Assembly: GCF_004010195.1 (NCBI RefSeq) | Contig: NC_057740.1 | Coordinates: forward strand, 31,563,257-31,627,160 | Origin: Chiloscyllium plagiosum | Lineage: Eukaryota | DNA: 63,904 nucleotides | Reading direction: 5' to 3' | In this document: in pieces, positions 1 to 53,786 of the stretch | How the letters are laid out: each line of letters begins with the position of its first letter | How positions within the stretch are numbered: the first letter of the stretch is position 1 | The notes under the pieces: model-generated | Databases searched by the model: none | The model's input: the letters and a program-made list of their open reading frames with translations, nothing else | What the model was told of the DNA's origin: nothing | Made by a program: the position numbers and the translations under genes

Positions 1-128
1 TTCCTGATGAAGGACTTATGCCCGAAATGTCGATTCTCCTGCTCCTCGGATGCTGCCTGACCTGCTGAGCATTTCCAGCACCACACTCTTGACTCTGATC
101 CCCAACATCTGCAGTCCACACTTTCTCC
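1..128 (+). mobile_element. Penelope-like pLTR fragment, family A, with decayed hammerhead motif
   Basis: CTGATGA(4-10)-AGGACTTATGCCC-GAAATGTC, then the family-A tail gattctcctgctcctcggatgctgcctgacctgct..., which recurs more than 10 times in the window. Confidence 0.85.
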
Positions 129-1149
129 ACTTTGTTGCTGGCATCAAGCGATTTCACACCTATTTAATCAGCAGGAAATTCACAGTTGGAATAAATGATG
201 AGGCACTAGAAGTGATCCACCATAAATTGCTAATGGATGTACCATCACACTTGCAGAATTTTGCTGTGAAGGTGGAAGGATATGTCTTTGAAGTGAGATA
301 TAAACCAGTTACCAGGATGATGTACAATGTTGATCCCAAGAAAATATCTACTCCAAATCCAAACTTATTAAGTCTCATGTGCTGAGCAGATTACCCAGCC
401 ACACAAAGATCTACACATTGGGCTGAATCTTATTTCATCTTTAGTTCTTTTTTGTTCAAGTGTTAGTTTTGTCGACTTCCACAAAGGGTTTTTCTCTGCA
501 AGGCCTAGCAAGGTCTTATGCTGGATCCTATCAAACTTGACTCATTAACCATCTCGCTCACCCCTCCAGCTCTCTTCATGCTCAATTCTAGTCCTGTTCT
601 CCCACCTGCCATTCTGGACGAACTCACCACTCATCTGTTATCCTCTGAAATACCAGTATTCCTTGTGCCTGTGTCTTCTTTCGAAGGTCATTGTGAATCT
701 AGATAAGCATTGGCAACCTGGCATTGTAATGGCACAGCAGTCGTAAAGGTATGCTGCTCCTGGCACGCAGCTGATGTGGCTGACACTTCCTCGCACACCC
801 AAACCCATTCTCTCATCCGAGTCACTGTTTAACCACAAGGCCACATAGTTTACCTGTCCTTAGCTCCATTCCATCTGAACACCCTCTCTAAGTCACTGTG
901 ACTCTGTCCCCAGTGCCCACAGTAGTCCCACATCTTATCCAAGAGGGGAACATCAGATACAGGTTTGCAGTTGGACACTTTTCCTTTTATTTACAGCCAT
1001 CAAAGGAAATGCAAATAATACAAATAGAGGCTTCAGTTTGTTCCCACAATGGAGACTAAATGCTGACATGATGACCAATGAGTATTTTACATTTCACTAT
1101 GCACCCAGCTCTCATCCATTGGATCTGGGTATCAATCATGTCCTGTCTG

Positions 1150-1400
1150 GCTTTTAGTGCCTGGCACAGATGACCTCCCTCATGCACAAGGTCAGCTTCC
1201 TCCTCCCCAATGTCCTCTTCCTCCTCCTCTTCCTCTTACTTGGATGACTGCTCCTTTTCCCCAATTCCTCAGCATTCAGATAATACTGCATTGCCTGCTC
1301 CAATTGAACAGGGAATGATGTGGCACAGTCTGTCCAGATTATACTGGAGGCTCCCCCAGATTGGTCCAAACAGGGAAGCCCGGTGACCAGCCTTGAAAGG
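1150..1400 (-). mobile_element. PIF/Harbinger transposase C-terminal remnant
   Basis: With one frameshift the minus strand reads C-L-D-Q-S-G-G-A-(L)-Q-Y-N-L-D-R-L-C-H-I-I, followed by a purine-rich tract. This resembles the HARBI1-type RCLDxSGGALQY motif. Confidence 0.65.
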
Positions 1401-2439
1401 CACATGGGCCAGGTACATGAGAATGCTCCAGGGTGTAGGATCTGGCAGCCATCAGGTAATGGTCAATATAAAATGGTCAAGCAAGCCACTCAATTTAAGG
1501 GCAATGAAGGATGGGTGATAAGCACTGGCTTAGTCAGGAACAGTCACATCTGATAAAAAAGGATGAGAATAAGGAAGAAAACTTCACTATAGATGATTAT
1601 GCAGTGATGTTGAGTGACAATAACTAGCGGCAAGCCAACCAAATTGTCAAACAAATGTCACAGAGAACAATGTGTGCTGGTCCAAATACAATCACCAGAT
1701 CAGGAAGAGACGTCAAACCTCCACAGCATTACACTGAGGTTTGAAATGTTAGTCATTGTAAACTCTGTTTTACCTGTTTGTATAATTATCAAATTGACAA
1801 TACATGTCTATGTACAACAACATAAATCTGTTTGAAATAATTTCTTCACATTTTGAAAGAGGGCCACAGTCAGCAAAGCTTTAAGAGACCTGCTCATGAT
1901 AACATCACTGTTTCATAGCAGGTGGCCTGAGGATATAAAGGTCTTAGATCTCATCTTACTTGAGATCATTTGATGTGTGACTTGTTAACACAAACAAGCT
2001 CTTCTGGTGGAACTGAAGAGCCTAATGCTAGGCCAGACACTTATGAGCCTGTGAATGTATTAATTATACATAACTGCCAGATGTAATAAACATCTGTTGG
2101 ATCCTTCAATCCCATGTTATCCACTCCTAGTTTCTTATGTTACAAAAAAACATAAACATTGCCACATCTGAATATAGTTTATTGCACATTGGAAATAGGG
2201 CATGAGTTAGATTGTATCATTAAACATTTTTAGTAAGACCACCAGGAGACCCAGTAATAACAGATATGTCCCTTTGAGATTCCCAATGATCTTCTGCCTT
2301 TCCCCATCCAAGTTCTTAGGACACATTATATTAGATGTGATTTATTGTAGTCTTCAGCATTAACCCTTCCAAAACCATTATGTTATATACCATATCCTAT
2401 GCTTTTGAGACCCTCAGTGTGTCCTCCAAGCTTGGAGCC

Positions 2440-2760
2440 ACACTGATTGCTCAGCTGGAGGTGGTAGGGATGGCAGTAGATGGTAATCAGCAAGAGGCCA
2501 TGTTTGACCCAATGTCATGAGATTTCATGGACTCTGAACAAAATGTTAAGGACTCCCTCCTGACTGTATAATAATGTGAATCACCTCTGGTGGATCGACA
2601 CTGTCAGTAGAACAGGACATAGCTGAGGTAGTGTGTCCAGAGCATTGGCTGTGAAGTATGAGTCAATGAATATTTAAATATCAAGCTTATGCTTGTCTAG
2701 TCTGTGAACTACTCTCCCAAATCTGGCACAGGCTCGCACATATTAGCAAGGAGGACTCCG
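2440..2760 (-). mobile_element. Decayed LINE APE-endonuclease fragment (L2/CR1 group)
   Basis: Minus strand encodes YVLFY*QCRSTRG-like and LLLITIY-like pieces resembling the GY..RxDR..RGGG region of LINE endonucleases. Confidence 0.5.
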
Positions 2761-6765: not shown

Positions 6766-6979
6766 TTCACATTGGACCATGGTGCTTTGGTTCTATTTGG
6801 AGGGTGGATGGGCATAATGAATCCTCTGGTGACAGCAGGTTGTGTACAGAAATTGTTCTTTTAACAAAAAAAAGATTAATTTCCTTACGTTTGCCCACAA
6901 TGACCTTATGTTACGACAGGCTGATAGATGTGTCAATCATCCAAGTACTAATGGTACAAATTGAAAACACTTGAAACCT

Positions 6980-8340
6980 CTTATGCTGGGCAAGCTTTTG
7001 GAGAGAATCCTGAGGGATAGGATGTACATGTATTTGGAAAGGCAAGGACTGATTAGGGACAGTCAACATGGCTTTGTGCGTGGGAAATCATGTCTCACAA
7101 ACTTGATTGAGTTTTTTGAAGAAGTAACAGAGAGGATTGATGAGGGCAGAGCAGTAAATGTGATCTATATGGACTTCAGTAAGGCGTTCGACAAGGTTTC
7201 CCATGGGAGACTGATTAGCAAGGTTAGATTCCACAGAGTACAGGGAGAACTAGCCATTTGGATACAAAACTGGTTCAAAGGTAGAAGACAGGGGGTGGTG
7301 GTGGAGGGTTGTTTTTCAGACTGGAGGCCTGTGACCAATGGAGTGCCACAAGGATCGGTGCTGCGCTCTCTACTTTTTGTCATTTACACAAATGATTTAG
7401 ATGCAAGCATAAGAGGTACAGATAATAAGTTTGCAGATGACACCAAAATTGGAGGTGTAGTTGACAGCGAAGAGGGTTACCTCAGATTACAACAGGATCT
7501 TGACCAGATGGGCCAATGGGCTGAGAAGTGGCAGACGGAGTTTAAATCACATAAATGCGAGGTGCTGCATTTTTGGAAACCAAATCTTAGCAGGACTTAT
7601 ACACTTAATGGTAAGGTCCTAGGAAGTGTTGCTGAGCAAAGAGACCTTGGAGTGCAGGTTCATAGCTCCTTGAAAGTGGAGTCACAGGTAGATAGGGTAG
7701 TGAAGCATTTGGTATGCTTTCTTTTATTGGTCAGAGTTGGAAGGTCATGTTGTGGCTGTACAGGACATTGGTTAGGCCACTGTTGGAATATTGCATGCAG
7801 TTCTGGTCTCCTTCCTATCGGAAAGATGTTGTGAAACTTGAAAGGGTTCAGAAAAGATTTACATGAATGTTGCCAGGGTTGGAGGATTTTGAGCTAGAGG
7901 GAGAGGCTGAACAGGCTGGGGTTGTTTTCCCTGGAGCGTCGGAGGCTGAGGGGTGACCTTATAGAGGTTTACAAAATTATGAGGGGCATGGATAGGGTAA
8001 ATAGGCAAAGTCTTTTCCCTGGGGTGGGGGAGTCCAGAACTAGAGGGCATAGGTTTAGGGTGAGAGGGGAAAGATATAAAAGAGACCTAAGGGGCAACTT
8101 TTTCACACTGAAGGTGGTATGTGTATGGAATGAGCTACCAGAGGAAGTGGTGGAGGCTGGTTCAATTGCAACATTTAAGAGACATTTGGATGGGTTTATG
8201 AATAGGAAGGGTTTGGAGGGATATGGGCCGGTGCTGGCAGGTGGGACTAGATTAGGTTGGGATATCTAGTCGCCATGGATGGGTTGGACCGAAGGGTCTG
8301 TTTCCATGCTGTACATCTCTGTGACTCTATGACTCTATGA
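6980..8340 (+). mobile_element. CR1 (HER1-like) LINE, 5'-truncated, RT pseudogene plus 3' UTR
   Basis: ORF 6971-7834 has QHGF..GKSCLTNL, YMDFSKAFDKV, GVPQGSVL and KFADDTK. ORF 7922-8269 continues in another frame. Ends in (CTATGACT)n. Confidence 0.97.
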
Positions 8341-8399
8341 CAGCCCAGAAATCCCAGAAAGTTGGCACCTGAGGATCGAAGACTTTGTCATTGGTTAAA

Positions 8400-8797: not shown

Positions 8798-11065
8798 ATT
8801 GCAAGAGCATTTTAACATACACAAAAAGTAAGAGAGAGGCAAGAGTGGACATTGGACCGCTGGAAAACAAGGTGCCAAATGCCTTAATGGAGAACAAAGA
8901 AATGTTGGAGAAACTGAATAAGTACTTTGTACCAATCTTCACAGTGAAAGACCCCAATAACATACCAACATTTCAAGAGACTGGGGGCCAGAGGTGAGTG
9001 TAGTGACCATCACTAAGGAGAAGGTGCTAGGGAAGCTGAAAGGTCTGAAGGTGGATACGCTACCCAGACCAACTGGACCACACTCCAGTGTTCCAAAGGA
9101 GGTAGCTGAGGAGATTATGGAGGTATTGGGTATTGATCTTTCAAGAATCACTGGAGTCAGGCAGGGTCCCAGAAGATTGGAAAATGGTTAATGTAACATT
9201 CCTGTTTAAGACGGGAAGGAGACAAAAAAATTGAAAATTTAGGTTGGTTAGCCTGACCTCGGGGGTTGGTAAGATTTTAGATTCCATTATTAAAGATGAA
9301 GTACTTGGAAGCACATGGTAAAATAGGACTAAGTCAACACGGCTTCATCAACGGGTGGTCATGTCTGAAAAACCTGCTAGAATTCTTTGAGGAGGTAACA
9401 AGCAAATTAGACAAAGGAGAGCATGTGGACGCGAAATTATTGGATTTCCAGAAGCATTTGGCAGGGTGCCACACAGGATGCTGTTAAGTACGATAAGAGC
9501 CCATGATGTTGGAGGCAAGGTACTGGCATGGACAGAGGATTGGTTGACTGGCAGAAGGCAGAGACTAGGAATAAAGGGGACTTTTTCAGGATAGCAGCTG
9601 GTAACTAGCAGAGTTCCGCAGGCATCCATGTTAGGATACACAACTGTTCACATTAGGTATTAATGATCTTGGTGAAGGAACCGAGGGCATTGTTGCTAAG
9701 TTTTCAGATGACACCAAGATAGTTGGAGGGACAGGATAGTGTTGACGAAGTGGACAGGCTGATGAAGGACCTGGAAAGGTGAAGAGAGGGTGCACAGAAG
9801 TGGTAAGGTGGAATATAATGTGGAAAAATGTAAGGTTAGGCACTTGGCAGAATAGAGATGTAGACTATTTTCTAAATGGATAAAGACATCAGAAACCTGA
9901 AGCACAAAAGGACTTGAGAGTCTTGAGTTCAGAATTCTTTTAAGTTTAACATTAAAATTGACATGCAGGTTCAGCTGGCAGTTAGGAAGGTAAGTGCAAT
10001 GTTAGCATTCATTTGAAGAGGACTAGAATTCAAGAGCTGGGATGTATTATTGAAGGCTGTGTTAGGCTCTGGTCGGATCACATTTGGAGTATAATGGGCA
10101 GTTTTGGGCTCTGTATCTAAGGAAGGATGTGCTGGCATTAGAGGAGGTTTACAAGATTGATCCTGGGATGAAGAACTTGTATAATGAAGAGCAGTTAAGA
10201 ATCCTGGGTTTGCACTTGATGGAGTTTAGAAGGAGAGAGACTAGGACCTGAAGGCACAGTCTCAAGAGTGAAGGGATGACCCTGTGGGATGTAGATGAGG
10301 AGGAAATTCCTCAACCAGAGGATAGTGAATCTGTGGAACTCACTGCCACAGAGGGCTGTGGAGGCCAAGTCATTGGGATCTTTAAGACAGAGACAGATAG
10401 ATCCTTTAATTTGAAGGCAAACAGGAATTATGGGGAGAAGTTGGGAAAATGCAGTTGAGAAACACAGCAGCCATGATCGAATGGGGAAGCAGACTTAGAG
10501 CCATAGAGTCATAGAGATGTGCAGCACAGAAACAGACCCTTCAGTCCAACTCATCCATGCCGACCAAATATCCCAACCCAAACTAGTCCTACCTGCCAGC
10601 ACCCTGCCCATAACCCTCCAAACCTTTCCTATTCATATATCCATCCAGATGCCTTTTGAATGTTGCAATTGTACCAGCCTCCACCACTTCCTCTGGCAGC
10701 CCATTCCATTCCATACACGTACCACCTCTGCGTGAAAAGGTAGGTCTCTTTTATATCTTACCCCTCTCACCCTAAACCTATGCCCTCTAGTTCTGGACTC
10801 CCCCACCCAAGGGAAGAGCCTTTGTCTATTTATGCTATCCATGACCCTCATGATTTTATAAACCTCTATAAGGTCACCCGTCAGCCTCCGACACTCCAGG
10901 GAAAACAGCCCCAGCCTATTCAATCTCTCCCTATAGCTCAAATCCTCCAACCTTGGCAACATCCTTGTAAATCATTTCGAGTTTCACAACATCCATCCAA
11001 TAGGAAGGAGATCAGACTAGATGGGCTGACTGGCCTAATTCTGCTCCTAGTTCATGGCCTCATAT
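8798..11065 (+). mobile_element. Older CR1 LINE (second subfamily), frameshifted ORF2, interrupted near its 3' end
   Basis: Fragments LNKYF, SQHGFINGWSCLKNLLEFFEEV and aagttttcagatgacaccaag (KFSDDTK). The 3' UTR resumes at about 11013 after the insertion. Confidence 0.9.
10498..11012 (-). mobile_element. CR1 LINE 3' fragment nested in the older CR1
   Basis: ORF 10633-10962 MLPRLEDLSYRERLNRLGLFSLECRRL..., very similar to 7870-8340, with a (catagagt) tail. Confidence 0.95.
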
Positions 11066-11584
11066 AAAATTGCAGCTTAATGGAGCAATAGTTATTGGCT
11101 ATTGACTGCTATAGTTTGGGATCAGTTCTTGTTCATTTACATTGTCTTTTGACTATTGTTTTTCAATAAAAGAAGGCTAAGTATTTTAAAGATGCAAATT
11201 AACTTGCAAGTACCAGTTTCAACTGGAACAAAAGTTTGTACTTCTGAAATATTTTTGACATTTGCAGGAAGATATCCCAGAATATAGAGGCATACAGTGT
11301 GCGTTCATTTTTTTAAAAAATCAAGGCCTTTACTTGATTTGAGCTTACTGAGTACTTTTCGCAACTTCACAAAGTCTGAAAGTACATTATAGCCAAATAA
11401 ATATTTTTTGAAGTGTAGACAGTTATGTAGGAAACACAGGAATCAATTCATAAATAGGAAGCTTCCTCAAACAGGAATCAGTTCATCAGTTTTTCTGTAA
11501 CATTGCTTGAGAGGTAAATATTGGCTAGGACCACAGGGATTATTTTTCTTTGAATAGTCTCAGGGGAACTTTTATAAAAACTGA

Positions 11585-12150
11585 AAGAACTACAAATACT
11601 GGAAATCAGAAACAAAAACAGAAATTGCTGGAAAAGCTCAGCAGGTCCGGCAGCTTCTGTGGAGAGGAATCAGAGTTAATGTTTCGGTTCGAGTGACACT
11701 TCTTCAGAACTGATGGTAGCTGGGGAAAGGTTGGTTTACATGCAGATGATAGGGGGCAGGGAGGGAGTAAGTAGCAAACAATAGGTGGGGATAGAGCCCA
11801 AAGAGAGAGAACAACAGCTCGACAGACAAAGGAATGGATAACAATCAGCCTAGGAAAATGAACAGCTACAAATTAATGGCTAACAATCAATTGTGTGTGT
11901 CATAGCAGACCAAGGAGATAACAAGGAGAAAGTGAGGACTGCAGATGCTGGAGATCAGAGTCAAAAAATGTGGCACTGGAAAAGCACAGCAGGTCAGGCA
12001 GCATCTGAGGAGCAGGAGAGTTGACTCACTTTTTGAAGTGATAACAAGGCCTGGTGTGTGGGGGTTGGGGTCAGGACATGGGAGAAGAAGCTTCAAGCCC
12101 TAAAATCGTTGAAGTCAATATTGAGCCCAGACCACTGTAGAGTTCCCAAG
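11585..12150 (-). mobile_element. Penelope-like element 3' end, family B (GIY-YIG C-terminus plus pLTR with hammerhead)
   Basis: Minus strand ends ...LGTLQWSGLNIDFNDFRA*. Hammerhead at 11674-11711 reads (rc) AGTT-CTGAAGA-AGTGTCACTCGAACC-GAAACATT-AACT. Confidence 0.85.
11927..12039 (-). mobile_element. Family A PLE fragment nested in family B
   Basis: Family-A tail flanked by direct repeat GATAACAAGG (11917-11926 / 12040-12049). Confidence 0.85.
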
Positions 12151-14480: not shown

Positions 14481-16289
14481 GTAGATACTATTCCACTAGT
14501 ACTAGCCACTGGTGCATAGCCAATATTAATTGTTTTCTTGGCAATGTTTAAGAATGTGTATTTTCCAATGATAGACAGTGGGCAGCAATCATGAGCAGAA
14601 TGCTTATTCTAGCTGAGGCACAGAAAACCATTTGTATCTCTCAATTTGATTCCTTGTCTGAGGTCAGCCAACTGAACAAAGACTGGGAACCTGGGGCTTC
14701 TATTATTGCTCTACAACTCACTGGCATTATTAACTGAACCACCAGTTAGAACAGAATCCTTTTCAGGCAACAACAATCAAACCTGTGTGGTGTTTTACCC
14801 GTCCTGCAAATCAACAGATTCCCAGGTACAGTAAGCCTTTAAATGCAGTGTCTAATTCAAACTGTTCACATTTATTCATTCATCTTTAAAGACAATCAAC
14901 TGTGAAAATGTTAAAACTGGAGTTTTTGGCAGACACACAAGACCAAGCTGCAGCTAGAATTAGTCAACTGACTCACCTATGTTCATTCATGGCTGCTGTT
15001 ATAACAGGTCACGCTAACCCAACCACAGGGTCATGCACACATCAACTCATAATCATAAATTCCTTGTTAGTATAAACACACAATAATAATTTGTGTTACT
15101 GGCTTGTAAGATGTTAAAGTGTGCAAGATTTACAGCATTTATAGTTTCTCACAGGGATGGGCTGACCTTATTTCCCCACAATTGGCAATCTATGCCTAAA
15201 CAACAAGCAAGCACAGCCAATACGATAAGGGCAAGCTGCAGACAACCAGACAATTTTGGCTCCTGTTGAAATTGTTGTTGGCTGCAGGAGTTAAAGCAGA
15301 GAATTGTTGGGATTCAACCAAGTAACATGTGATTCCCCACAGCCAAGGTCTTCTTCAGCTAAGTGTGAAGGCCACCCAGCAGGATAAGGGATTGTGATGT
15401 CAATCTCCTCAACACCTTTCCTCTTCTGTTACTAGCCAAAACAACTGACAATATGACAAGGGTATTGTAACTGAAACTGGGCACACCCCTTCCAATCAAA
15501 ATACGAAGATAGCTATCTCTTTCATAGCTCCAGTTATCAAGGCACAACGAGTGAGCTGCCCATTGGAAAACACTTTGAAGCTAAACACTGGAATGTTTCC
15601 AAAGTAGCCATTATGTTAATTCCCTTCCAGCCAAAGAAAGCTGGTATCTCTATTGTTAATTCTGTTCGGTCAACACAGACAGTATTTGTGTAAGCGCTAC
15701 AGACCTAATCCCATTTATGGCTTTTATATTTTAGGCATTTTTCAGCCTTTAACAACCTCCCAACTATTAAATGTGCTATCTTCAAACGTTTGTTGCACAA
15801 TACTCCAGATCAGAGCGTTGATGTGGTTGGCTGCTCCTGTACATTTTCAGGTTTCTACTCACTTTGATTTCAATAATGCGAAGGTCAAGCATATTCTGAA
15901 TCCAGTGATTCACATTCCACCAGAAAACCCATTTATTTTTCCCAAGGGGACCAGAAATATGATGGAAGCCCTCATACTGTGGAACGTAGATAATAAGGAC
16001 ACTCTGTATTCAGTGCAAACCACTTCCCTGACCTTGCACAAATAAGCCATAAAACCATAGAAAATAGGAACAGTGCCTCAAGCTTGCTCCACCACTCAAT
16101 AGGATCATGGCTGATCCAATGTACTCCTCATGTCCACTCTCCTGCCTTTTCCCTATACATAGGACCATAAGATGGTGGGAATATTTTGGTCACTAGAAGT
16201 ATTTGGATAAAGACTTCCCATTCGGCTGCAGCCTCCAAAGATTTCCAAGTGAGAGACCAATGCTTTTTGATAATAGACTTCTAAGATTG

Positions 16290-16493
16290 GAATCTAGAGT
16301 GTGGTGTTGGAAAAGCATAGCCAATCAGGCAGAATCTGAGGAGCAGGAGAATCCACATTTTGGGCATAAGCCCTTCATCGTATACCCGAAACATCAATTC
16401 TCCTGCTCCTCAGATGCTGCTTGACCGGCTATGTTTTTCCAGCACCACAACTCTCCACTCTGATCTCCAGCATCTGTAATCCTCACTTTCTTT
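16290..16493. mobile_element. Family A head-to-head fold-back pair
   Basis: Minus copy ends at 16379, GTATA filler, plus copy starts at 16385. TSD TTCTAAGATTG at 16279-16289 / 16494-16504. Confidence 0.9.
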
Positions 16494-16869
16494 TTCTAAG
16501 ATTGAAATGTCTATCTGAAGCACAATCAGTTATTGCCCTGGATTGATGAATTTGAAACAAGCTGCCAGATGAAGTGGTTTTGCGTTCTCCTTAACTCCCC
16601 TAAGAACCTGCTGCCTTCATTTCAATGCCAGATGCATATTGACTGTGAGTAGTGACCGGGCTTTCCTGGGCCTACAGGAAAAAGGAATGCATTATTCAAG
16701 ACCATATATCACTGAATCGGTGGAGTTCAGATTGTTGAAGAAGATTGTTTCATATTTGCTCTTGGGAAGGAGTAACTAGGCAACACTCAATGCCAAGGGA
16801 TTTCACAATCCCATTAGACCTTAGGGAAAACATAAAAACACTGGCATTAGCATGGGAACAGTAAGATAG

Positions 16870-17330: not shown

Positions 17331-18016
17331 AAAAAGAAACAAATTTTGCTACTGGTTAACATCAGAATGCCCCTAAAGATCACCATACAGTACTGCACTA
17401 TACTGATAAAGATCAGGTGAGTGTCTGTTATTATCAGGGAAAAAAAAACAAATATACACTGTGGAGTTGGGCCATTGGGTTTAGATACCTCAGAGAAAGC
17501 AACAAATGAGAACACTGAACCACGAGGGATTTTTCTTCCCTCTTGCTCTCTTCTAAAATGAACATAAAACATTACAGATCATGCACTCACATATACATCA
17601 GAACTAGAACCTAACGATTCAAAATTCAGTTCACTGACATTTTCTTTTCTTATCTAATTTGGTCATCCTTCAAGTAACAGGGAGTATAAACTTGTTAAAG
17701 TCAGCCTTGTACTTACAGAAGCAACTTGCCTTGGCTTTATCCTTGAAATATATCCCGCAGGTGCAAATTTGGAGATGAATAGTTCAAAAATGGCCCTCTT
17801 TAAAAGAAAAGAAGAAACTCAGCGACAAAATGTCTGGCCAAATGGCTGGGTCAATTGCCTTTGGGCACCACGTCAACTCGTGGCCAAGGCCAAGTCATGT
17901 CATGTTGCAACGTTCAATTGGGGAGAGATTATAGTTGGCCACCCTCATCAGAAGGTCAGCCATGCCTTTTAAAAAAGAACTAAGAACTCATACACACATG
18001 CTTACTGAAAATTCCA

Positions 18017-18189
18017 ATAACACCAGGTTATAGGCCGACAGGTTTATTTGAAATTGCAAGGTTTCAGAGCGCTGCTCCATCCTCATACCTGAAAGCTTAC
18101 AATTTCAATTAAACCTGCTGGAATATAATCTGGCATCACTTGATTTTTGACCTTATCCACCCCAGTCCAACTCCGGCACCTCTACATCT
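18017..18189. mobile_element. Family D PLE head-to-head fold-back pair
   Basis: Inverted arms (caccaggttataggccgacaggttt / aaacctgctggaatataatctgg) joined in the hammerhead at about 18085. TSD TGAAAATTCCA at 18006-18016 / 18190-18200. Confidence 0.85.
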
Positions 18190-18334
18190 TGAAAATTCCA
18201 GGCCTCTATTGAATTGACACACTGTAGTGGTGGAAGTACAGCAATGTTACAAATTAGTTTAACAGTAAGAAAAGGATGTTGATTCCTGATGGGCTGAGAG
18301 GTTCCAGCTGACTGAATGCAGTGTTCATGTCAAT

Positions 18335-18957: not shown

Positions 18958-18979
18958 CAGTTGAGCACCATCAGGTATC

Positions 18980-19070
18980 ACCAGTTCTGAGGAAGGGTTA
19001 CTCAACCCAAAACATTAACTTTCATTTCTGTCCAAGATGTTACCAGACCTGCAATTTCTGTTTTTGTTTC
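18980..19070 (+). mobile_element. Family B pLTR fragment with decayed hammerhead
   Basis: AGTT-CTGAGGA-AGGGTT ACTC AACCC-AAAACATT-AACT (18983-19020). Confidence 0.8.
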
Positions 19071-35190: not shown

Positions 35191-35201
35191 TTCTGGAATG
35201 A

Positions 35202-35325
35202 CCTGAAGAAGGGCTTATGCCCGAAACGTCGATTCTCCTGCTCCTTGGATGCTGCCTGACCTGCTGCGCTTTTCCAGCAACACATTTTTCAGCTCTGATC
35301 TCCAGCATCTACAGTCCTCAGTTTA
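35202..35325 (+). mobile_element. Family A fragment with intact hammerhead core
   Basis: CTGAAGA(35203-35209)-A-GGGC TTAT GCCC-GAAA-C-GTC(35228-35230), then the family tail. Confidence 0.92.
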
Positions 35326-35484
35326 TCACATAAGTGGATATTAGGCAAATGACCAAAAGGAAAACACAAGTTGTTAGGAATGTTGTAAGAGAATATGAAG
35401 TTAGAGAAACAGAGAGTTTGGGGAGAGAATTCTAGACATTAATACTTGGCAGGTAAAGGTTTGACTGCCAATAGTAGCATAACA

Positions 35485-37179: not shown

Positions 37180-37278
37180 GAAACAAAAGCAGAAATTGCA
37201 GAAGAAACTCAGCAGCTCTGGCAGTATCTGAGGAGGGAAAACAAAGTCAATGTTTCAGGTCCAGTGACCCCTCTTCAT
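37180..37278 (-). mobile_element. Family B pLTR fragment, decayed hammerhead
   Basis: Homologous to 11605-11710. Reverse complement reads TGAAGAGGGGTCACTGGACCTGAAACATTGACT. Confidence 0.75.
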
Positions 37279-37895
37279 TGAATTTCAAAACTGGCATGAA
37301 AAATGGTCTACTTCTGCTCCTACTTCATATATATTTATGTCTGAATAGCCTGTTGTATTTGTTCCTGCTGAGAACAACTAGGCTTGAACATAAAGCCAGT
37401 GTTGTAGGCTGGAATGACCTTGAAAATTGTCTCACATTAACACATTACCCTCTTTTTGAAGTAATGACCAACAAAGTAAGCAAGTGCCCAACACTTTGTG
37501 TCCCGGTCCATTGTCAGCCTGAGGGCTGAGCTAGCTTTGGCTTCCAAGACCTTTGTTGAAGTCATTGTCCTTGCCTAGTCCCACTTGATCCTCCATAGCC
37601 CTGCGAGTTTACTTCCTTCAAGTGACTGTCCAATATCCTTTTAAAATCATTGATTGTTTCAATATCCATCCTCGTCAGCACAGAGATCCAATTTATTATC
37701 ACACGCAACAATGGAAGTTTCTTCCTCATTTTCCTCCCTCCAATTTTTACCCCAAATTTAAAATCTGTCCTTCTTTCATCAATTAATGGGAAAAGTTTTT
37801 CCCTGCCTACCTTACCTAATTGTATAATAATTTTGTAGTTGAAACTTTATTGCTGGAACAGCACAGCAGGTCAGGCAGCATCCAGGGAACAGGAG

Positions 37896-37931
37896 ATTCG
37901 ACGTTTCGGGCACAGGCCCTTCTTCAGGAAT
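37896..37931 (-). ncRNA. Minimal type-I hammerhead ribozyme, mirror copy
   Basis: Exact reverse complement of 38114-38149. Confidence 0.8.
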
Positions 37932-38113
37932 GAGCAGAGAGTGTTCAGCAGGAGAAGATAAAAGGTAGGGAGGAGGGACTTGGAGGAGGGGCGTTGGAAA
38001 TGTGATAGGTGCAAAGAGGTCTTGACCTCTTTCCACCTATCACATTTCCAACGCCCCTCCTCCAAGTCCCTCCTCCCTACCTTTTATCTTCTCCTGCTGA
38101 ACACTCTCTGCTC

Positions 38114-38149
38114 ATTCCTGAAGAAGGGCCTGTGCCCGAAACGTCGAAT
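38114..38149 (+). ncRNA. Minimal type-I hammerhead ribozyme, fully intact
   Basis: ATTC-CTGAAGA-A-GGGC CTGT GCCC-GAAA-C-GTC|GAAT. Stem I is ATTC/GAAT, stem III is palindromic ACGT, predicted cleavage after 38145. Confidence 0.8.
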
Positions 38150-38659
38150 CTCCTGTTCCCTGGATGCTGCCTGACCTGCTGTGCTGTTCCAGCAATAAAG
38201 TTTCAACTTTGATATCCAAATGAATCCAACAAGAACTGGACCAAGCATATGTGGTACTCATAATCTTCTTCATCCTAAGTATACGCATGATTTTACTACA
38301 ACTGCTAAGTATTTCATCAGTAATATTTTCAGCAACATAACACAAAACATCGCAGATAAGAAAAACTGCAGCATATTAACATGCCAAATTTCCCCTAAAG
38401 TAAATGCATTAAAATTCCATCAAATTTGACAATATTGTTATGTATTTGGCTTTAAGGGGTTAACACGTAGGGGGTTCCATACAACAGCCAAGCAGGGTGA
38501 GATCAATAGTTGTGATGTTGAGAAGATATGCTCTTCTTCATTAGGGTAAATAAAACCACAGAAAGTAGACAAAATCAAACACAAAATATTGCTGAGGAAA
38601 GGAGTGAACAAAGACAGAAATGGGAACTATTTAAATGTAAATCTATGATTTGTTGTACG

Positions 38660-40100: not shown

Positions 40101-42304
40101 AACTGATTACTTCCCAATTCTGACTGCTATTTTTTCAAGCCTATATCATCATTGACAGTATGGTATTACAAGTGAACCTGGATTGGAGTTCTAAACATGA
40201 TATCAACTTTTAAAGTACAAAATATCTGTTCTTCTGCTCTTGGGATTCGTCTTTATAATAGAAGCCTGCACTTAAAGAGCATTATCAGACAGAAATTGCC
40301 TTTCCACATGATGCAACATAAAATTCTAGCAGTGACCTACAATCAGTCAAAGAAATCTCCTACTCTCAGCAGACAGTGGGTGCCACCTATTGGTCTGAAA
40401 GAGATGGCCCAATAGAAGCAATTTGGACTCAAATGATGCGGTAAATCGTGACAAAGTAGCAACGATTACCATGGTAACCACAAATCCACACCAATAGCTT
40501 AGGGAAAACAATAGTTAAGTAAAAATACTTCAAAAGCACCTAGATCACTAACATGCATCCAGTAGGTTATCTTTGCTACTGATTTCAAGCAGCAAATGTA
40601 TCCTGTTTGCAGGCAGTCTAGCACAAATAAAAATGTTACATTAAACAGTCATTGTTACCATGCAGTAGCAAACGCAATCAATTTTGGTGCAGAAATTTGT
40701 TCCGCTACATGAACCTGCTAAAATTATAACAGATGAAAAGAATGTCATGAATATATTTACATAAAGATTGAATAACAAAATTAACTAGAAGCACTCAAGC
40801 GGCAGTGAAATTCCCATGGAATTCCCTAATAAGTCAATTCAATATTTGCAAGAGAAAGCAGAAGCCTGTACATATTGCTTACGTCCCATGAATTAATAGG
40901 AATTGAGCAGATCACAATATTTCACTGGAATCTGGGATGTGAAAATAAAGGGCTTTGAAACCATATGCGTTGCATTAATAATGAATGTACTGAGATTCCT
41001 CTGTTCAGTATTTCAGCAAAGGCAGTAACTCATTTTGGACCCATATGAGGGAAGATTTATCTTTGATGTGGGTAAAAACAGACAAGAGATTCCACATAAT
41101 TTTTATTTCCATGTAAAAAGAAATTAGATGTATTGCATAGTAAGCCATGATCCTTTGCCCACCATTTTACACATTCCCCACACTGTCCCCAAAGTTGGAT
41201 TGCACCTCTTCCCTAACGCAGACTGAAAAGTTTCCTTGTCTCATGCTTTGGGGTCCTTATCTTGGGAAATGAAGCTCTCCGCATTTGGTGCTCCCAGGTC
41301 AAGTACCTGCCACCACAACGGGGAATAAAGCATTCATTGCTGTGTGTCAATAATGTGCTTACCCCACAGTTTGACCCATATTGCTCCAGTTTTGTGTTTT
41401 TTTTTTAAATTCCATTCCTCATGCCAGCTATCCTGCGATCTCTGTGAATGAGATTGCCAGTCAGTGTCAGATTTTCGCTGTGTGAATCTACTCACTATGA
41501 TTGACACTGCCCAAATTGATTTCACAGTGGACATTTATAACCAGCAGAGACAGGAGATTTTCATCCATTTAGGCTGAGATGGATTTGCATCCAGTTCCCA
41601 GAGATGAAAGAAGAGCGTCAAACCACTCTGGCACCCAGTTCCAAACAAAGAATTAGTGTAAGAATATTAATGTATCCATTACTAAAACAAGGAAAGATTT
41701 GCATTTAAATGGCACAACATTAAATGCCTCTAAGCACATCTAATTCAAAGTGCATTACATATGGCATACAGTCTGTAATGTCTTATAGGCAAATACAGTA
41801 ACCATTGCAAAATCCACAAATGGCAAATGATGATAGAATAGTAGAACATCAGAGAACCACTCTCCACAGATGCTGCCAGACGTGCTGAGTATTTCAATAC
41901 TTTCTGCTTTTGCATCATAGAGGACATCCATTAAACCCATCATGTCCGTCTTAGCCGTTCAAAAGAGGTATGCATTGAATTTGGTTACCCTCCTCGAGAT
42001 CTGCAAATGTTTCATTTCCAAGATTATATCCAGTTTCTTTTGGAAGTAATGATTTAAGCTTCATCCAATCAAGCGGTGAATTCCTAAACAATTAGTTAAG
42101 CAGATTACGGGTCATTGACTGAGGGAGGGATGCTTACTCAGGCGCTGAGAAAATTCTGTGATGTTTTTGATTATGGTATGTTGCAGGGTGGGGAGAGGAA
42201 TCATTGAGCAAGCTGCACTGTAAGTTCATTGTCTATTCTGAAGAACTGCATCTCTGACAAAACTGGTGTGTCAGGATAGTATATATCCTGGAAATAGGTT
42301 TCAA

Positions 42305-43922: not shown

Positions 43923-44081
43923 TAGGGAGAAAGTGAGGACTGCAGATGTTGGAGATCAGAGTCGAGAGTGGGGTGCTGGCCTTTCATCAGGAGTAATGCA
44001 GGGCTTATGCCTGAAACATAAATTCTCCTGCTCCTCGGATGCTGCCTGACCTGCTGTGCTTTTCCATCACCACACTCTCCA
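43923..44081. mobile_element. Family A head-to-head fold-back pair
   Basis: Minus arm (internally deleted) ends TCATCAGGA at about 43992 and the plus arm starts at about 43994. TSD CTGGATTACAA at 43912-43922 / 44082-44092. Confidence 0.9.
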
Positions 44082-44589
44082 CTGGATTACAACAGCTGGT
44101 TAGCAATCAGTTTACATTTTGTTTGCATGGGATTTGGTTTTGTGAGGATTGGGTGGGAAGTAAGAAGAAGGATTTGTTTTTCACTGCTTCTATAACAGGA
44201 TCCGTTCCCCCAACCCTTTCATTGCTGTCTAAGACAGGCAGCCTGGGTAACCCTTAACATAAAGAATGGACACTTTGTCAGGAAAAAAGGATGGACACAC
44301 ATATAATGCTGGCACTCCATTCACTCCTTTTAGAAAATTGCTTATAATACTTCGATCCAAAATCACAGAACTGTACAACCGAAACAAGATACAAGTCTGA
44401 TGAGAGCGAAAACCCACATTCCCATTTTCACCTTGTACTTTACATTTAGAATAGGGAGAGTCGGAGTGTTGTCAATCACTTAATTTAACAGTGACTCATT
44501 TCAAATAATGTACAACACTTACAAGCTTACATGCCTATATACAGTATACACATACACTAATAACCCAATACATCCACAGGCATACCTGC

Positions 44590-45352: not shown

Positions 45353-45882
45353 TCTTTGAGGAGAAAGTGAGGACTGCAGATGCTGGAGATCAGAGCTGAA
45401 AATGTGTTGCNNNCTGAGACAAGGTGGGGGAGGGGAAATGAGGAAACTGGAGAAATCTGAGTTCATCCCTTGTGGTTGGAGGGTTCCTAGGCGGAAGATG
45501 AGGCGCTCTTCCTCCAGCCGTCGTGTTGCTATGGTCTGGCGATGGAGGAGTCCAAGGACCTGCATGTCCTTGGTGGAGTGGGAGGGGGAGTTGAAGTGTT
45601 GAGCCAAGGGTTGGTTGGGTTGGTTGGTCCGAGTGTCCCAGAGGTGTTCTTCCTGACCTCTCCGTCCCCACCCCCACTCCGGCCTATCACCCTCACCTTG
45701 ACCTCCTTCCACCTATCGCATTTCCAATGCCCCTCCCCCAAGTCCCTCCTCCCTACCTTTTATCTTAGCCTGCTGGACACACTTTCTTCATTCCTGAAGA
45801 AGGGCTCATGCCTGAAACGTCGATTCTCCTGCTCCCTGGATGCTGCCTGACCTGCTGCGCTTTTCCAGCAACACATTTTCAG
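45353..45882. mobile_element. Family A PLE: minus arm with GIY-YIG C-terminus (contains NNN gap) plus plus-strand pLTR
   Basis: Minus strand reads LAQHFNSPSHSTKDMQVLGLLH...LEEERLIFRLGTLQPQGMNSDF. Plus-arm hammerhead at 45790-45825. TSD CTCTCTTC(A/G)TTAAAA at 45338-45352 / 45883-45897. Confidence 0.92.
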
Positions 45883-46042
45883 CTCTCTTCGTTAAAACTC
45901 AATAGTCATTTTCCTAGCACTGTTAATTGGATATCCCTTAGACTCATTGCAGGTGGATTACGGATTTTGTGCCAGGAGCTCTGCGTTCAATTTGTATTTG
46001 CTCAGATATATAACAATATCTCTGAACAGTTGGTTATAAAAT

Positions 46043-48140: not shown

Positions 48141-48334
48141 GTTTAGATCAGAGTGGTGCTGGAAAAGCTCAGCAGGTCAGAGAGCATCCGAGGAGCATGA
48201 AAATCGACAGGAACAGCTTTTGCCTGAAATGTCGATTTTCCTGCTCCACGGATGCTGCCTGACCTGCTGTGTTTTTCCAGCACCACTCTGATCTAAACTC
48301 TAGTTTCCAGCATCTGCAGTCCTCACTTTTACCC
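48141..48334. mobile_element. Family A head-to-head fold-back pair
   Basis: Minus arm ends at GAC (rc GTC) 48208 and the plus arm starts in stem II at about 48216. Perfect 15-bp TSD ATAAAAGAGATTATG at 48126-48140 / 48335-48349. Confidence 0.93.
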
Positions 48335-48946: not shown

Positions 48947-50174
48947 ACTTTCATATGAAGTTTTTCTCCAATGTTTACTAATTAACTCATTCCTTATTGC
49001 CTCTCTTCACTAAATGAAAAATATCCTTTGTGTTAATTGTCTCCACTTTATTATCCATTTTTCCGCCCCTACTTACTTTGAGATGACATCTCTTATATTT
49101 TGATGTTTTGCCCTGCTATCAATGACTGGTGGACTGTGGTTGGGTAGAGTGCTGCTACTAATTCTCCTTTTCATATATTTTCTAATCAACCTGTTCAATG
49201 ATGTTATTACACATCACTGAAGCAGATGGGACTTGAACCGGGGCGTCTTGGTTCAAAGCGAGGGATACTACCACCATATCACACAAGCCCAGTTCTCCTT
49301 CCTATGCCGGTCTAAAGGGCTAAAGGGCTATTCAGTAGTCATTGGTGGAGGATGGACTAGATGCAAGTCTCGGCGTAAGAAGCACGTTAAATAAAAAGCT
49401 GTAGTGTATTAGCTTACAATAATTATACACTGGCGATATCAGCTCTTAGACATATTCATTATTATTAGCAAAGAGGACAGTCTGTGAATCCCCACCAGGG
49501 GTTTTTGCCATAACGCAACTGATTCACTACCACATGTGAGTACAGCTCACACATTAACCCATTCGGAAGCATTACCTTATAGAACAACTTGCACTCTGTT
49601 GAATGACACAAAGAAATGGAAAACTTAATAAATAGATTGGCATGACGGTAATCCAAAGGTAAGTGGGTGATGACAATGACCCGCATGGTTCTGTGATGTG
49701 GAATGGAACAAATGGGAGATAGATTACCTGGCTAACCTTTCTGCTTTTACATTCTACTCTTGATGAACAATATTTAAATATTGTTTACATAAGAAGAATA
49801 AATCACATAATAATGGTCCCATTGTGTATTCTTGCAGATAGGTTTTATTCATTTAGCTTAAATTAATTCAAATTTATTAGGTACATAACAGTGTTCTTTC
49901 TTTCATTGTCAAATTTTATACATTCTCTTTAGGACCTGCTCATACATCATGCACATAGACAATAATGAATGCACATTACACATTATACTTATTGCTCATT
50001 TTTATAATATATCGGTTATGCTGCCGTCTTGCAAAATCTCATCTCTTTTCTTCAGGAAAGGACAGTTCTGGTTCTCCTGATTTCCCACCATAAAATCATT
50101 AGAAAAGCTGTATGAACTACTTGAACTCTTCTCACTGTGTTCTTTAGGATTTTCGCTGATCTTTAATTGAAGTT

Positions 50175-51730
50175 ATAAGGACATAGAACAGTACACTCAG
50201 GAAAGGACCTTTCAGCCCATTATGTCTGTGCTGACCACAATGCCTTTCTAAGCTCATCCCATCTGCCTGCACATGGCCCATATCCTTGTATTCTCTGCCT
50301 GTTCATGTGTCTGTCTAAATGTGGATTAACTGTTGCTATTGTGTCTGCTTCGACTACCTTTCTTGGCAGCGCATTAGCCACCTATCGTCCTCTGTGTAAA
50401 AAACGTATCTCCTACACCTTCTTTAAACTTTCCACCTCTCACCTTAAACCTATGACCTCTGATATTTGACATTTCCAACCTAGGAAATAGACTTCAACTA
50501 TCCGCCCTATCCATGCCACCTATAATTTGATATACTTCTATCAGGTCACCCTTCAGCCTTCGACACTCTAGTGAAAACAATCCAAGTTTATCTAACCTCT
50601 TCTTAGAGCGAATACACTCCAATCCAGGCAACATTCTGGTAAACCTCTCTTGCAACCTCTGCATAGCCTCCACAACCTTCCAATAGTTTGGTGACCAGAA
50701 CTCCAAGTGTGGACAAAGTAAAGTTTTATACAGCTGCAACAGGACTTGCCAACTTTTATACTCAGTGCTTGAATCGATGAAGGTACACATACCACATGCT
50801 TTCTTTACCACTGATCCACTTGTGTTGCTCCTTTCATGGAGCTATGGACATGCACCCCAAAGTTCCTTTGTACATCAATGCTCCTCTGGGTCCTGTCATT
50901 TACTGCTTTCCTCATGCGTTTGACCTCCCAAAATGAGTCACCTCATACTTGTCCAGATGAAACTTCATCTGTCATTTCTCTGCTCAGCTTTCGAACTGAT
51001 CTATATCCTGCTGCATCCTTTGATAACCCTCCTCACTGTCCATAACTCCACCAACTTTCATGCAGCCTGTAAACTCACTAATCCGACAATCTATGTGTTC
51101 TTCTAAATCATTTATATATTACAATCAACAGAGGTGCCAGCACTGATCCTTGTGAAACACCATTTGTCACAGACTTCAGTCAGAAAAGCATCCCTCCACA
51201 ATTACCTTCTGCCTTCTTTGACCAAGCCAATTTTATATCCAACTTACAAACTCATACTCCTTGCATTAAAGTAGATACACTTCAGGCTGCCAGTCCTGCC
51301 TGTTCTTCCTACTGGACTTACCTGATTTAGTCCTCTCTTCGCTTCAAGCACTCCACATGCTGAGCCTACTTTTCAGGTCCTGCTTTTCAATTTTCCACCT
51401 AACTCCCTAAATTCCCTTTTCAGGCCTCATCTCTCCTTCTGTCTATGATATTAGTTCCAGTATGGACCATGGCCTCCGGCTGCTCAGGCTCCCCTATTGG
51501 AATATCTGTACCCACTCGGAGACATCCTTGATCCTGGTACCAGGGAGGCAACACATCATCCTGCAATCTTACTCACAGACACAGAAATGTCTATCTGTGC
51601 ACCTGACTATTTCATTACTGCACACCTACACTTGATGCTCTCGCCTCTACAACAGAACCAATTGTGGTACCACTGATCTGGCTACTGCTGTTGCTTTCCC
51701 TGAAAGGCCATCCCTAACAGTATTCAAATA
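50175..51730 (-). mobile_element. CR1 LINE: tail, ORF2 C-terminal half, then an internal deletion joining an ORF1 (SGNH/esterase-like) fragment
   Basis: ORF 50494-50811 LQLYKTLLCPHLE..RFTRMLPGL. About 51520-51560 (rc) reads RMMCCLPGTRIKDV. Confidence 0.85.
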
Positions 51731-52964
51731 AAGTGAAAATTGAGAAATTTGCTCCCAACGTCCTGAATACTATCTCAGTGTAAGGTGCAGTCACTGCAAA
51801 ACCAATTGATTGTTTTTGAAATGACTATTTTCATTCACATATCCCTCACTGGGTCCGATCCTTCCTTTACAGCCTCCAATGGCCCAGCTTGCAACTTCTG
51901 TGTATATTCAATTGCACATCTTCCCATTCCCTTTATTTTATTATCAGTCACAAAACCTTTAGCCATTATAGCCTTGCACTCTAGCAAAGCACTTGTTACC
52001 TTGTTTTTTCTACCTTCAAATTGCTCCTGAAGAACCTACTCCTCAACTGTGTTTGGTTGGCCCACTACAGACTCCAAACTCATGCTCAGCAGTCAATCCA
52101 TCTTCTTGTGAACTGTACTGCCATGTATTGCTATGGTTAAAGGAGTATGAGTACCCTTTGTAGTTGCACAATGTAAACTGGGCCTACAGTGAGTGTGGTT
52201 ACACATAATGTGAGAATGCAGGAAAAGGTACGTCATAACGTAGCTCCAGTTCACAATGGGCAGCATGGCTGGAATGGACCAGAAACAAGTACCCAATGTA
52301 AAACTTTGGTTTCCAAACATTTATGAGATGAACGAAAGGAGCCGAGGACCATTAGGTACAGAAGGAAGCCATTTAGCTTCGCAACCTCGATCCTTCATTC
52401 AATTAAATTATCCACATCTTAACTCTATTTCTCAGTCTTGACTCCATATTGTTGACACTTGTGCAGAAAAGGGTTGACTCTTGAATATGTTCATAGGAAG
52501 CTATCTCAATGATGAAGCCATGATCATACAATGGAGAGACCCTGAAGCAACAACTTAAACTTCATGCTTAATTCAAATCTACGGAGTTAGTTTAATATAA
52601 ATAAAATTTTAAAAGTACTAAGACTCTAGCCAGATCTCTAGCATAGAGCAGTGGACTCTAAAATCTTTGAAGACATCACACCACATCATCAGAAGTCTAT
52701 TAATGTCATTTTTGATGGTTCTAATTGTCCCATCATCCATATCCTTTTGGAACAGAGAATTCAACATTTCTCCTATGCTTTTTGATCTTGTACGGTAAGT
52801 CCCTTCATGTTTGAGTCTCCCGACCAGATTAAATAGTTTATCGATCTACTTGAAATCATTAAACGTATCCAACACCTCAATCAGGTCTCCATTAAATCTT
52901 TTAGATTGAAAGGAATACTAAGTTTGTGTAACCTGCCTTTGTCATATCATTGGTTAGAGACAAA

Positions 52965-53013
52965 GAGTGTGTATTTTACTGTTGTCATTGTAACAACAGT
53001 AAAATACACACTC
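52965..53013. repeat. Perfect 21-bp inverted repeat with 7-nt loop
   Basis: GAGTGTGTATTTTACTGTTGT-cattgta-ACAACAGTAAAATACACACTC. Confidence 0.9.
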
Positions 53014-53434
53014 AAGTTTGTCATTCAGTATTTTCTGTTCCTTGTCAGTTCCTGCAATGGTTTTAGAAGGGAAATGCCACCCGGTGTAAAGAGAAAGCCC
53101 CGAAATTTGATAATAATCCAAGCTAACCAACTTTACTACAACCATAGTGACAAAATTGGGCGGCTGTAATTGGTCTTAGGTGAGGGTAGAGGGTGAGCAG
53201 AGGATATTGGCTTTGGTCAAAGGTGGAGAATCCCAGTGTTGTGACTGCTATCTAGCAAAACTGGCTGCAAAGGTTAACAACTGCAGACATGACAGACTTA
53301 GTTGTGAGGGCCCCTGTAATGGAACAGACTGCTGAGAGCGATGACCAAAGTTCTTGGGTAAGGATAGAAGACTTGGCGTGGTGCCAAAAAGCAATTGGCA
53401 TTGGTTTAACTGTATTACATGAAATTATCAATGC

Positions 53435-53786
53435 AATGTCTTGCCCGGTGAAGTAGTTGATGCTACTTCATTAAACATTTTTAAAGCTAAGATAGATATT
53501 TTTTGAACAATAAAGGGATTAAGAGATGGTTTGGAGATGCCAGTGTTGGACTGGGGTGTACAAAGTTAAAAATCACACAACACCAGGTTATAGTCCAACA
53601 GGTTTAATTGGAAGCACTAGCTTTTGGAGCGCCGCTCCTTCATCAGGTGGTTGTGGAGGAATTAAGGGATACAGTGAGAGCGTGGGTAAGTGGAGCTGAG
53701 TCCACAAAAAGATCAGCCATGATCTTATTGAGAGGCGGAGTAGGCTCGAGGGGCCAGATGGCATACTCCTGCTCCTAGATCTTATG
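53435..53786 (+). mobile_element. CR1 3' end interrupted by a family D element
   Basis: LPGEVVDATSLNIFKAKID, with the 3' UTR resuming at about 53660. Confidence 0.85.
53524..53656 (-). mobile_element. PLE family D pLTR with hammerhead
   Basis: Reverse complement reads CAC-CTGATGA-A-GGAGC GGC GCTCC-AAAA-G-CTA-GTG (53615-53649). TSD AGG(G/A)ATTAAG at 53514-53523 / 53657-53666. Confidence 0.88.

Follow-up and report, generated by a model that had tools for sequence, protein, structure and literature searches.

The window analysed here is a stretch of 63,904 nucleotides (nt) from the genome of the shark Chiloscyllium plagiosum (contig NC_057740.1, positions 31,563,257 to 31,627,160, forward strand), and it carries many short insertions with hammerhead ribozyme motifs. 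In our reading, these insertions are pseudo-long terminal repeat (pLTR) ends of Penelope-like elements (PLEs) that bear an endonuclease (EN), and the commonest short form of the Neptune type is likely to be abortive strong-stop cDNA, begun at an internal site and ending at the RNA's capped 5' end; we give this reading a probability of about 0.6. The motif and its host elements are known; what goes beyond them is the hammerhead load of this genome and the geometry of the insertion ends.

An earlier note, made from the letters of this DNA alone, had described about 20 insertions, roughly one per 3 kb, in five unrelated families, A to E. Family profiles seeded on window copies and searched across the whole window give 25 matches (A 15, B 4, D 3, E 2, C 1) in about 21 insertions, which bears out the density, and a rebuilt C profile adds a match at 58074. 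The five families are not all unrelated, as A and B are 70% identical over 91 nt. A sixth, Poseidon-like family, F, was found in a genome sample (see below) and is absent from the window. Positions within a copy are numbered from the first C of CTGANGA as +1, and the base before it is 0. The window copies are listed below (TSD stands for target-site duplication and RT for reverse transcriptase).

1-128, plus strand: tailed A pLTR end, truncated by the start of the window; core 4-10, palindrome decayed (ATGT)
11568-11923, minus strand: B pLTR with decayed hammerhead (11673-11711); upstream, at about 12090-12150, a weak remnant of a Neptune EN end
11924-12025, minus strand: A stub, start at about +26, tailed, inserted in the B copy
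16294-16493: A head-to-head fold-back, long and short arm; 15-bp TSD (16279-16293 and 16494-16508)
18017-18188: D head-to-head fold-back, decayed; 12-bp TSD (18005-18016 and 18189-18200)
18972-19071, plus strand: B stub, hammerhead 18983-19021 decayed
19898-20180, minus strand: older A copy, upstream pLTR reaching the last EN codons
21077-21167, minus strand: A mini, start -2, short 3' end, core intact; 12-bp TSD (21065-21076 and 21168-21179)
21706-24201, plus strand: E, a 5'-truncated Poseidon-type PLE with an inverted arm; 13-bp TSD (21693-21705 and 24202-24214)
21706-22229, minus strand: inverted arm of the E element, hammerhead 21742-21781
22230-24018: RT-EN remnant of the E element, followed by the 3' pLTR, a hammerhead at 24086 and the tail
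23639-23851: piece, presumably of CR1 type, splitting the E element
25021-25113, plus strand: A mini, start at about +1, TSD of about 14 bp, core intact
32146-32268, minus strand: A mini, start +1, tailed, G12 lost
33688-33980, minus strand: C pLTR with broken stem II, hammerhead 33731-33766; 72-88% identity to the nearest genomic copies
35091-35198, plus strand: C remnant, cut off at its core beside an A insertion
35202-35327, plus strand: A mini, start 0, tailed, core intact
37180-37277, minus strand: B stub, decayed
37837-38208: A long fold-back, arms of 185 nt with 99% complementarity; each of the two intact hammerheads, 37896-37931 (minus) and 38114-38149 (plus), has TATA-like CTTTTATC upstream; no TSD found
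41860-41912, plus strand: B tail remnant
43926-44083: A fold-back, left arm deleted, TSD of about 11 bp
45360-45884: A, Neptune GIY-YIG C-terminus 45413-45652 (minus) running via a 3-N gap into a tailed end; also an inverted pLTR arm, hammerhead at 45794 (plus)
48141-48334: A head-to-head fold-back, long and short arm, 15-bp TSD
53534-53658, minus strand: D mini, start -12, tailed, 10-11-bp TSD, G12 mutated, ATTAAA at +39
58049-58133, plus strand: C remnant, highly decayed

Hammerhead motifs and host elements

The grammar described in the earlier note (stem I, CTGANGA, an extra nucleotide, stem II, GAAA, a palindrome, an NUH triplet and stem I') holds, and the PLE pLTR origin of minimal type-I hammerheads stands with it. 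A strict hammerhead descriptor finds three motifs in the window (38118, plus strand; 37927 and 21778, minus strand) versus 0.04 per shuffle in 100 shuffles. Two marks of the PLE minimal hammerhead are present: the CUGANGA, GAAA and NUH core with stems I and II, and a loopless palindromic 15-16 segment, seen in 16 of 18 strict matches versus 0.1 in shuffles. N7 is the sole variable core column in A, B, E and F. The extra nucleotide that separates positions 9 and 10.1 is found in A, B, D, E and F and is absent in C, which has a 2-bp stem II and an AAGCTT palindrome. The predicted cleavage triplet is GUU in B and F and CUA in D.

Among the examples cited for each family, that of A (38114-38149) folds with stem I, stem II and an open core; most of those cited for B to E are damaged. 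In the D example at 53615 (CCAAAAGC) an A replaces G12; stem II is broken in the B example at 11674, which also has ACAT for ACGT, and in the C example at 33737; the E example at 21742 has ACCT, which is not a palindrome, and that at 24086 has CTAATGA in the core. All core letters are kept in six window copies, every one of family A. The hammerhead motifs are real, though most window copies have decayed; an Rfam scan of the window gives no hammerhead match at E<=5. Matches to microRNAs at 37905-38139 in Rfam reflect the family A fold-back and were rejected.

Covariation of the stems, likewise proposed from the window, is observed between families and, within B and E, also between subfamilies. 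A stem II pair of B is G-C in 10 of 24 copies, A-T in nine, mixed in four (2+2) and different in one (Fisher p 0.003, not corrected for relatedness), and stem I of E exists in two compensated forms, TCA/TGA and CCA/TGG. No compensatory change was seen within 48 exact-pattern copies of B. Unconstrained folding of dimers yields stem-II swaps and not the active dimer, and is uninformative. The majority subfamily of A, 81% of copies, has a T-T mismatch in stem I (ATTC/GATT) and is therefore missed by strict descriptors; in the minor subfamily stem I is fully paired and AATAAA is found at +77.

By sequence, A, B and D appear to be Neptune-type and E Poseidon-type pLTR ends; C is unassigned. RT with a C-terminal GIY-YIG domain lies upstream of the pLTR, on the same strand, in A, D and E: Neptune RT-Zn finger-EN frames upstream of A (loci L226 and L065) and D (locus L215), and Poseidon RT-EN upstream of E. 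The Zn-finger linker between RT and EN, which according to Craig et al. 2021 marks the Neptune clade, reads CNCKKCKTC in A and CHGGRCKTC in D and is missing in E, and it is on this ground that A and D are assigned to Neptune; their proteins are 28% identical. EN sequence is found within 700 nt upstream of 14 of 114 A, 9 of 10 E, 6 of 9 F and 1 of 35 B matches, and the link of B to PLE coding sequence consists of Neptune-like EN-end remnants only. The statement that four families adjoin GIY-YIG ends in this window is clear for A (45437-45652) and E (21917-22168 and 23476-23970), weak for B (E 0.015) and without counterpart for C and D in the window. The E element at 21706-24201 (GIY-YIG match, E 1e-5) combines RT and GIY-YIG remnants, a tailed 3' pLTR, an inverted arm and a TSD. 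More generally, the copies have the 30-40 bp tail on one end, the inverted pLTR and the TSD of canonical EN+ PLEs, and they shade into RT-EN coding sequence. Open frames of 764-2242 aa from the genome searches were rejected, as those inspected consist of runs of N.

The homology of family C extends about 570 nt upstream of the motif, and no convincing EN was found in the 59 genomic loci searched. Its upstream region (33760-33860, minus strand, and 35091-35198; loci L127-L185) contains repeated CCAAT boxes and, at about -45, a TATA box, with no open reading frame (ORF) found. The long 3' untranslated region (UTR) of D has a (CA)n-rich tract between the EN stop and the pLTR (loci L089, L111 and L040).

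Ends of the copies, fold-backs and RNA reads

The 5' ends were scored by aligning copies at least 92% identical to long, non-inverted references; 5' extents from all-against-all BLAST are confounded by fold-backs matching each other and were not used. Of 71 young A starts, 38 lie at -15 to +14, three at -60 to -16, 17 further upstream and 13 downstream (p 1.8e-12 for the cluster versus -60 to -16). In D, 15 of 22 young starts lie at -15 to +14 and none at -150 to -16. The modal start, -2 to -4 in A and -7 in D, is the 5' edge of the hammerhead, with starts covering some 25 nt. Judged by eye, homology is lost near the core in about 14 of 20 core-selected B copies. Because the ends cluster, the term "mini" stands for more than random truncation. 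TSDs directly abut the cluster starts, and TSD-bounded solo copies begin there without common upstream sequence, such as 21077-21167 and 25021-25113 in the window. One long copy (locus L236) starts at +2 and runs into the A ORF, which begins about 165 nt downstream.

In long copies that are otherwise divergent, a TATA-like motif stays at a constant distance (a single 6-nt bin takes 55 of 76 in A and 37 of 52 in D), with its first letter at -34 in A (TTTAT) and -37/-39 in D (TATAA), 30-32 nt above the modal start; the minis have no TATA box. The start of A and B overlaps TCATTC or TCAGTT, which we take to be initiator-type sequence. Among the first 100 of 7,183 genome matches, counted by eye, the purine preceding ATTCC is G in 68 cases and A in 32 (p 1e-7 for the G excess against genome composition and 4e-4 against 0.5), and all five local G cases are junctions with differing upstream sequence. 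An untemplated G has been described as a mark of cap copying in L1 and SVA (PMC4859970).

In A, B, D, E and F, the 3' ends fall into two groups about 37 nt apart; the two sites are at +88-92 and +126-129 in A and at +85-90 and +123-126 in D. For PAc, a Poseidon element of Anolis, two internal sites of RT initiation have been identified as the origin of the PLE tail (Frangieh et al. 2024, PMC11167929). Head-to-head fold-backs in the genome sample and the window number 35 in A and 12 in D. A long arm is paired with a short arm in 26 of the 29 classifiable A fold-backs (p 1.5e-5) and in 7 of 12 D fold-backs, the other five being unclassified, and a TSD flanks 36 of 47 fold-backs versus 9 of 371 shuffled flank pairs. 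One exact head-to-head junction pattern has 6,073 genome matches; most junctions differ. Fold-backs with unequal arms would fit two cDNAs, one per cut DNA end, begun at different start sites, and the two 3' sites and fold-backs match the two-site initiation and priming of both strands reported in vitro for the anole element (PMC11167929). At a single locus, L070, a start at -11 is joined to ORF sequence, and this one case looks like a misplaced strand jump. The 99% palindrome at 37837-38208, with two short arms and no TSD, is unlike most fold-backs; it either inserted very recently or is an artefact of the assembly.

Poly(A) single-cell reads of one run (X21), of which about 2% was read, bear on family D. 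Out of 2,174 placed reads, 762 have poly(T) at D, 414 at +61 and 348 at +58. This poly(A) site is 12-15 nt past ATTAAA, in DNA without an A run, and upstream of both 3'-end sites of D, so that only the 5' repeat of such an RNA contains priming sites. The polyadenylated reads cross the hammerhead uncut. The D pLTR carries a used poly(A) signal, ATTAAA at +39/+41 (L074:2542-2545; 53534-53658 in the window).

Proposed strong-stop cDNA and its alternatives

In retroviruses and LTR elements, strong-stop cDNA is primed internally near the 5' end of the RNA and runs off at the cap, within a repeat bounded by the transcription start and the poly(A) site. By the same logic, transcription of the Neptune elements would start at A(-3) in family A and A(-7) in family D. 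The RT-EN protein would cut both DNA strands and prime cDNA at two internal sites (+88-92 and +126-129 in A), and this cDNA would reach the cap after 90-135 nt. If it jumped to the repeat at the RNA's 3' end, promoter and ORF would be copied, giving long copies that regain the promoter; if it were joined directly to the target, a solo mini would result, and if joined to the cDNA from the other DNA end, a fold-back. Stubs lacking the TATA box are likely to be dead on arrival. The hammerhead would lie inside the terminal repeat (R), where its palindrome would pair the two repeats, and it may cleave only with protein help. Hammerhead cleavage is not needed for any of these steps and has left no clear mark.

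The order TATA box, start, hammerhead, poly(A) site and priming sites can be read as U3-R-U5 with the hammerhead in R. Indirect evidence indicates four LTR-like features (promoter, start, poly(A) site and priming site) for D and three for A. We extend this only tentatively to the proposal that Neptune pLTRs are functional U3-R-U5 repeats, in which strong-stop cDNA undergoes strand transfer, the hammerhead serves mainly as a palindromic pairing signal for repeats or RNAs, and hundreds of thousands of failed transfers have been fossilised as minis and fold-backs.

Several observations weigh against the strong-stop reading. The G excess is partly confounded, since the partner arm of a fold-back can supply the G, and it therefore counts as moderate evidence. 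E and F have a TATA-like box and no 5' cluster (0 of 36 E copies, mostly picked by ORF, start below -92, and 0 of 13 F copies below -57), and the majority of the 20 core-selected C copies extend far upstream; with no cluster in E and F and little in C, the 5'-end pattern is not general. The poly(A) reads of D come from a single run, and their source loci are possibly host 3' UTRs. No poly(A) site for A was seen in the RNA reads, and AATAAA occurs only in the minor A subfamily (11 of 177). Molecule starts or ends do not pile up in either RNA read set. Long copies would also arise from read-through tandem RNA and not just from the proposed strand transfer, and Penelope of D. virilis is described as having a TATA-less internal promoter and an intron before the hammerhead (PMC2377424, PMC4209133).

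We consider it rather unlikely that the minis are ordinary 5'-truncated PLE copies, formed where RT stalls, or two cDNAs anneal, at the palindrome-rich hammerhead, with no transcription start involved. Fold-back junctions are often at microhomology (AATT, GCCC), the starts are scattered across about 25 nt, and palindromes at inverted junctions are known and have been read as self-priming (PMC3846280), all of which such truncation would accommodate. However, an RT moving 3' to 5' would be expected to halt where it meets the fold from the 3' side (about +29 to +33) and not once it has passed it, and the modal start tracks the spacing from the TATA box (-2 to -4 in A, -7 in D) and not the stem; TSD-bounded solos with no partner arm share the same start, and the G excess before ATTCC also points away from stalling. 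An intron ending at helix I, with a spliced or lariat RNA as template, would set the 5' boundary as in D. virilis Penelope, where the intron 3' end has been mapped to helix I (PMC4209133), and family A does have a pyrimidine-rich upstream tract and CTCAT at the boundary. The absence of a common upstream exon, the TSD or unique flank directly at the start, and the upstream sequence of D, which is not pyrimidine-rich and whose start is at -7, make this the most improbable of the readings.

The earlier note had called the population retrozyme-like. Self-propagating non-autonomous retrozymes or mini-PLEs would be short units that are transcribed, cleaved as dimers, circularised and reinserted, and they would account for the defined ends and some 10^6 copies; vertebrate retrozymes are reported to derive from pLTRs (10.64898/2026.07.22.740005), and one D junction recurs at 3 of 50 loci among the matches listed. 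A natural head-to-tail A dimer with a 334-nt period and two intact cores also exists (L101:2120-2720, minus strand). Tandems are nonetheless rare: only 5 of 178 random matches have as their only neighbour within 1.5 kb one on the same strand. The window holds no tandem array, and at least two complete hammerheads in tandem, the hallmark of a retrozyme, were met nowhere in it and elsewhere in single examples (L101 for A, L081 for F). Most junctions are unique, the minis have no TATA box, polyadenylated D reads run through the motif uncut, and the ends are not at the cleavage site: the interval +29 to +37 holds nine starts versus five and six in those flanking it, there is no significant excess of 5' ends at +29, and the RNA reads, which as poly(A) reads would not reveal circles, show no excess of ends there. 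The copies being solo or head-to-head and rarely tandem, with mostly different junctions and a gradation into RT-EN coding sequence, the label is not supported, and we regard propagation of this kind as improbable. A SINE (short interspersed element) identity was also rejected, as Rfam gives no tRNA, 5S or 7SL match at the sites and the ends are PLE tail sites.

In the L101 dimer, an internal deletion joins the ORF start to the upstream pLTR, and an inverted short arm and a 14-bp TSD are present; it would make a ready substrate for testing dimer cleavage, and it is a possible retrozyme seed. At L081:2224-2947, young family F, with its GUU site, has two direct copies 226 nt apart and an inverted copy.

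Abundance, known systems and significance

The genome sample comprised 120 arbitrary 10-kb stretches of contigs C1-C39 (1,148,582 non-N bases of a 3.56-Gb assembly). It yields 347 profile matches, 302 per Mb (bootstrap 265-337), whereas reversed sequence gives none, and the high density proposed from the window is thus a genome-wide property; 75 of the 347 keep all core letters. The density is about 48 per Mb for D and 12 for F. Extrapolation to about 3.4 Gb suggests roughly 10^6 relics and 2x10^5 intact cores, with fold-backs counted twice. Exact patterns run against the whole genome match 78,733 A and 14,732 D cores (93,465 together; controls 0), and narrower patterns match 122 C and 48 B copies. 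By comparison, the largest vertebrate count of minimal motifs reported in PMC4209133 is about 9,000, in Xenopus; the axolotl has been credited with 120,000 retrozyme copies (PMC7229834), and a PLE expansion has been reported for the whale shark (10.1101/443036). The hammerhead load here is well above the published counts that we found.

The median nearest-copy identity without CpG sites is 0.97 in A, 0.99 in F, 0.93 in D, 0.92 in E, 0.84 in B and 0.80 in C. Of the five window families, "recently mobile" is apt for A and part of D and fails for the rest, and the population is young only in part.

In 2014, Cervera & de la Pena (PMC4209133) described minimal type-I hammerheads in the pLTRs of metazoan PLEs, and they also report them in fish Xena, Poseidon and Neptune. 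The copies here share with them the lack of helix III, the palindromic 15.2-16.2 segment, the extra nucleotide 9/10.1 and G10.1-C11.1, as well as the presence of several families per genome, mostly as solo truncated copies. Family C departs from that motif in its stem II, missing extra nucleotide and AAGCTT, B and F in GUU, and D in CUA. With canonical EN+ PLE units (Craig et al. 2021; PMC3846280) they have in common 5' truncation, the inverted pLTR, the 30-40 bp tail and a TSD of about 9-15 bp, and a transcription start in the pLTR, with a putative TATA box and initiator in a rotifer pLTR, is already published (Craig et al. 2021; Arkhipova et al. 2013, PMC3846280). As far as these sources go, a dominant class ending at the inferred start, and a poly(A) site upstream of the RT start sites, are found only here (see also PMC8969392, PMC6155905 and 10.1101/2021.04.23.441226).

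PAc likewise has two internal RT starts that define the tail, and both strands are primed; according to that report, the hammerhead is not needed for insertion and no RNA ends lie at the cleavage site (PMC11167929). Its reading frame opens within the hammerhead, and its proposed mRNA is multi-copy, whereas the ORF of A lies downstream and the genomic record here speaks for run-off at the capped RNA end. Non-LTR retrozymes (PMC7229834; Li et al. 2026) are similar in their type-I hammerheads, PLE origin, short units and high copy number; they are, however, tandem repeats with circular RNAs (PMC7229834), whereas the copies here stand alone or head-to-head and do not end at the cleavage site. A survey of such tandem units included one chondrichthyan (10.64898/2026.07.22.740005). 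Unlike retroviral strong-stop synthesis, priming here would be by nicked target DNA and not by tRNA, with a GIY-YIG nuclease and no integrase; by analogy, the pLTR would work like the U3-R-U5 of an LTR without being a member of the LTR class.

The window also contains other LINE-type (long interspersed element) RT fragments, which we take to be CR1-like, at 6965-8334, 10499-10942, 23639-23851, 34632-34878, 50171-50841, 58733-59471 and 61195-61592; the part at 6965-7831 matches RVT_1 at E 4e-25. A further dispersed, SINE-like repeat of about 200-300 nt, without a hammerhead, is found at 31110-31317, 53880-54085, 57703-58003 and 63491-63777. In a search for a host gene, 17 window ORFs gave no Pfam match, and one gave matches at E 0.03 only.

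A literature search, with subscription papers, Repbase, Dfam and the supplements of Li et al. 2026 outside its reach, found no paper on shark PLE hammerheads or on strong-stop cDNA or strand transfer in PLEs. The end geometry is a testable and probably unreported lead on Neptune replication. On PLE replication and the role of the hammerhead, this population yields predictions at the level of single bases: starts at A(-3) and A(-7), poly(A) at +58/+61 in D, priming at +90 and +127, and one priming site per DNA end. Family D, with its density and its poly(A) signal, could end host transcripts. If strand transfer is true, a telomerase-related class of retroelements would share the logic of LTR elements.

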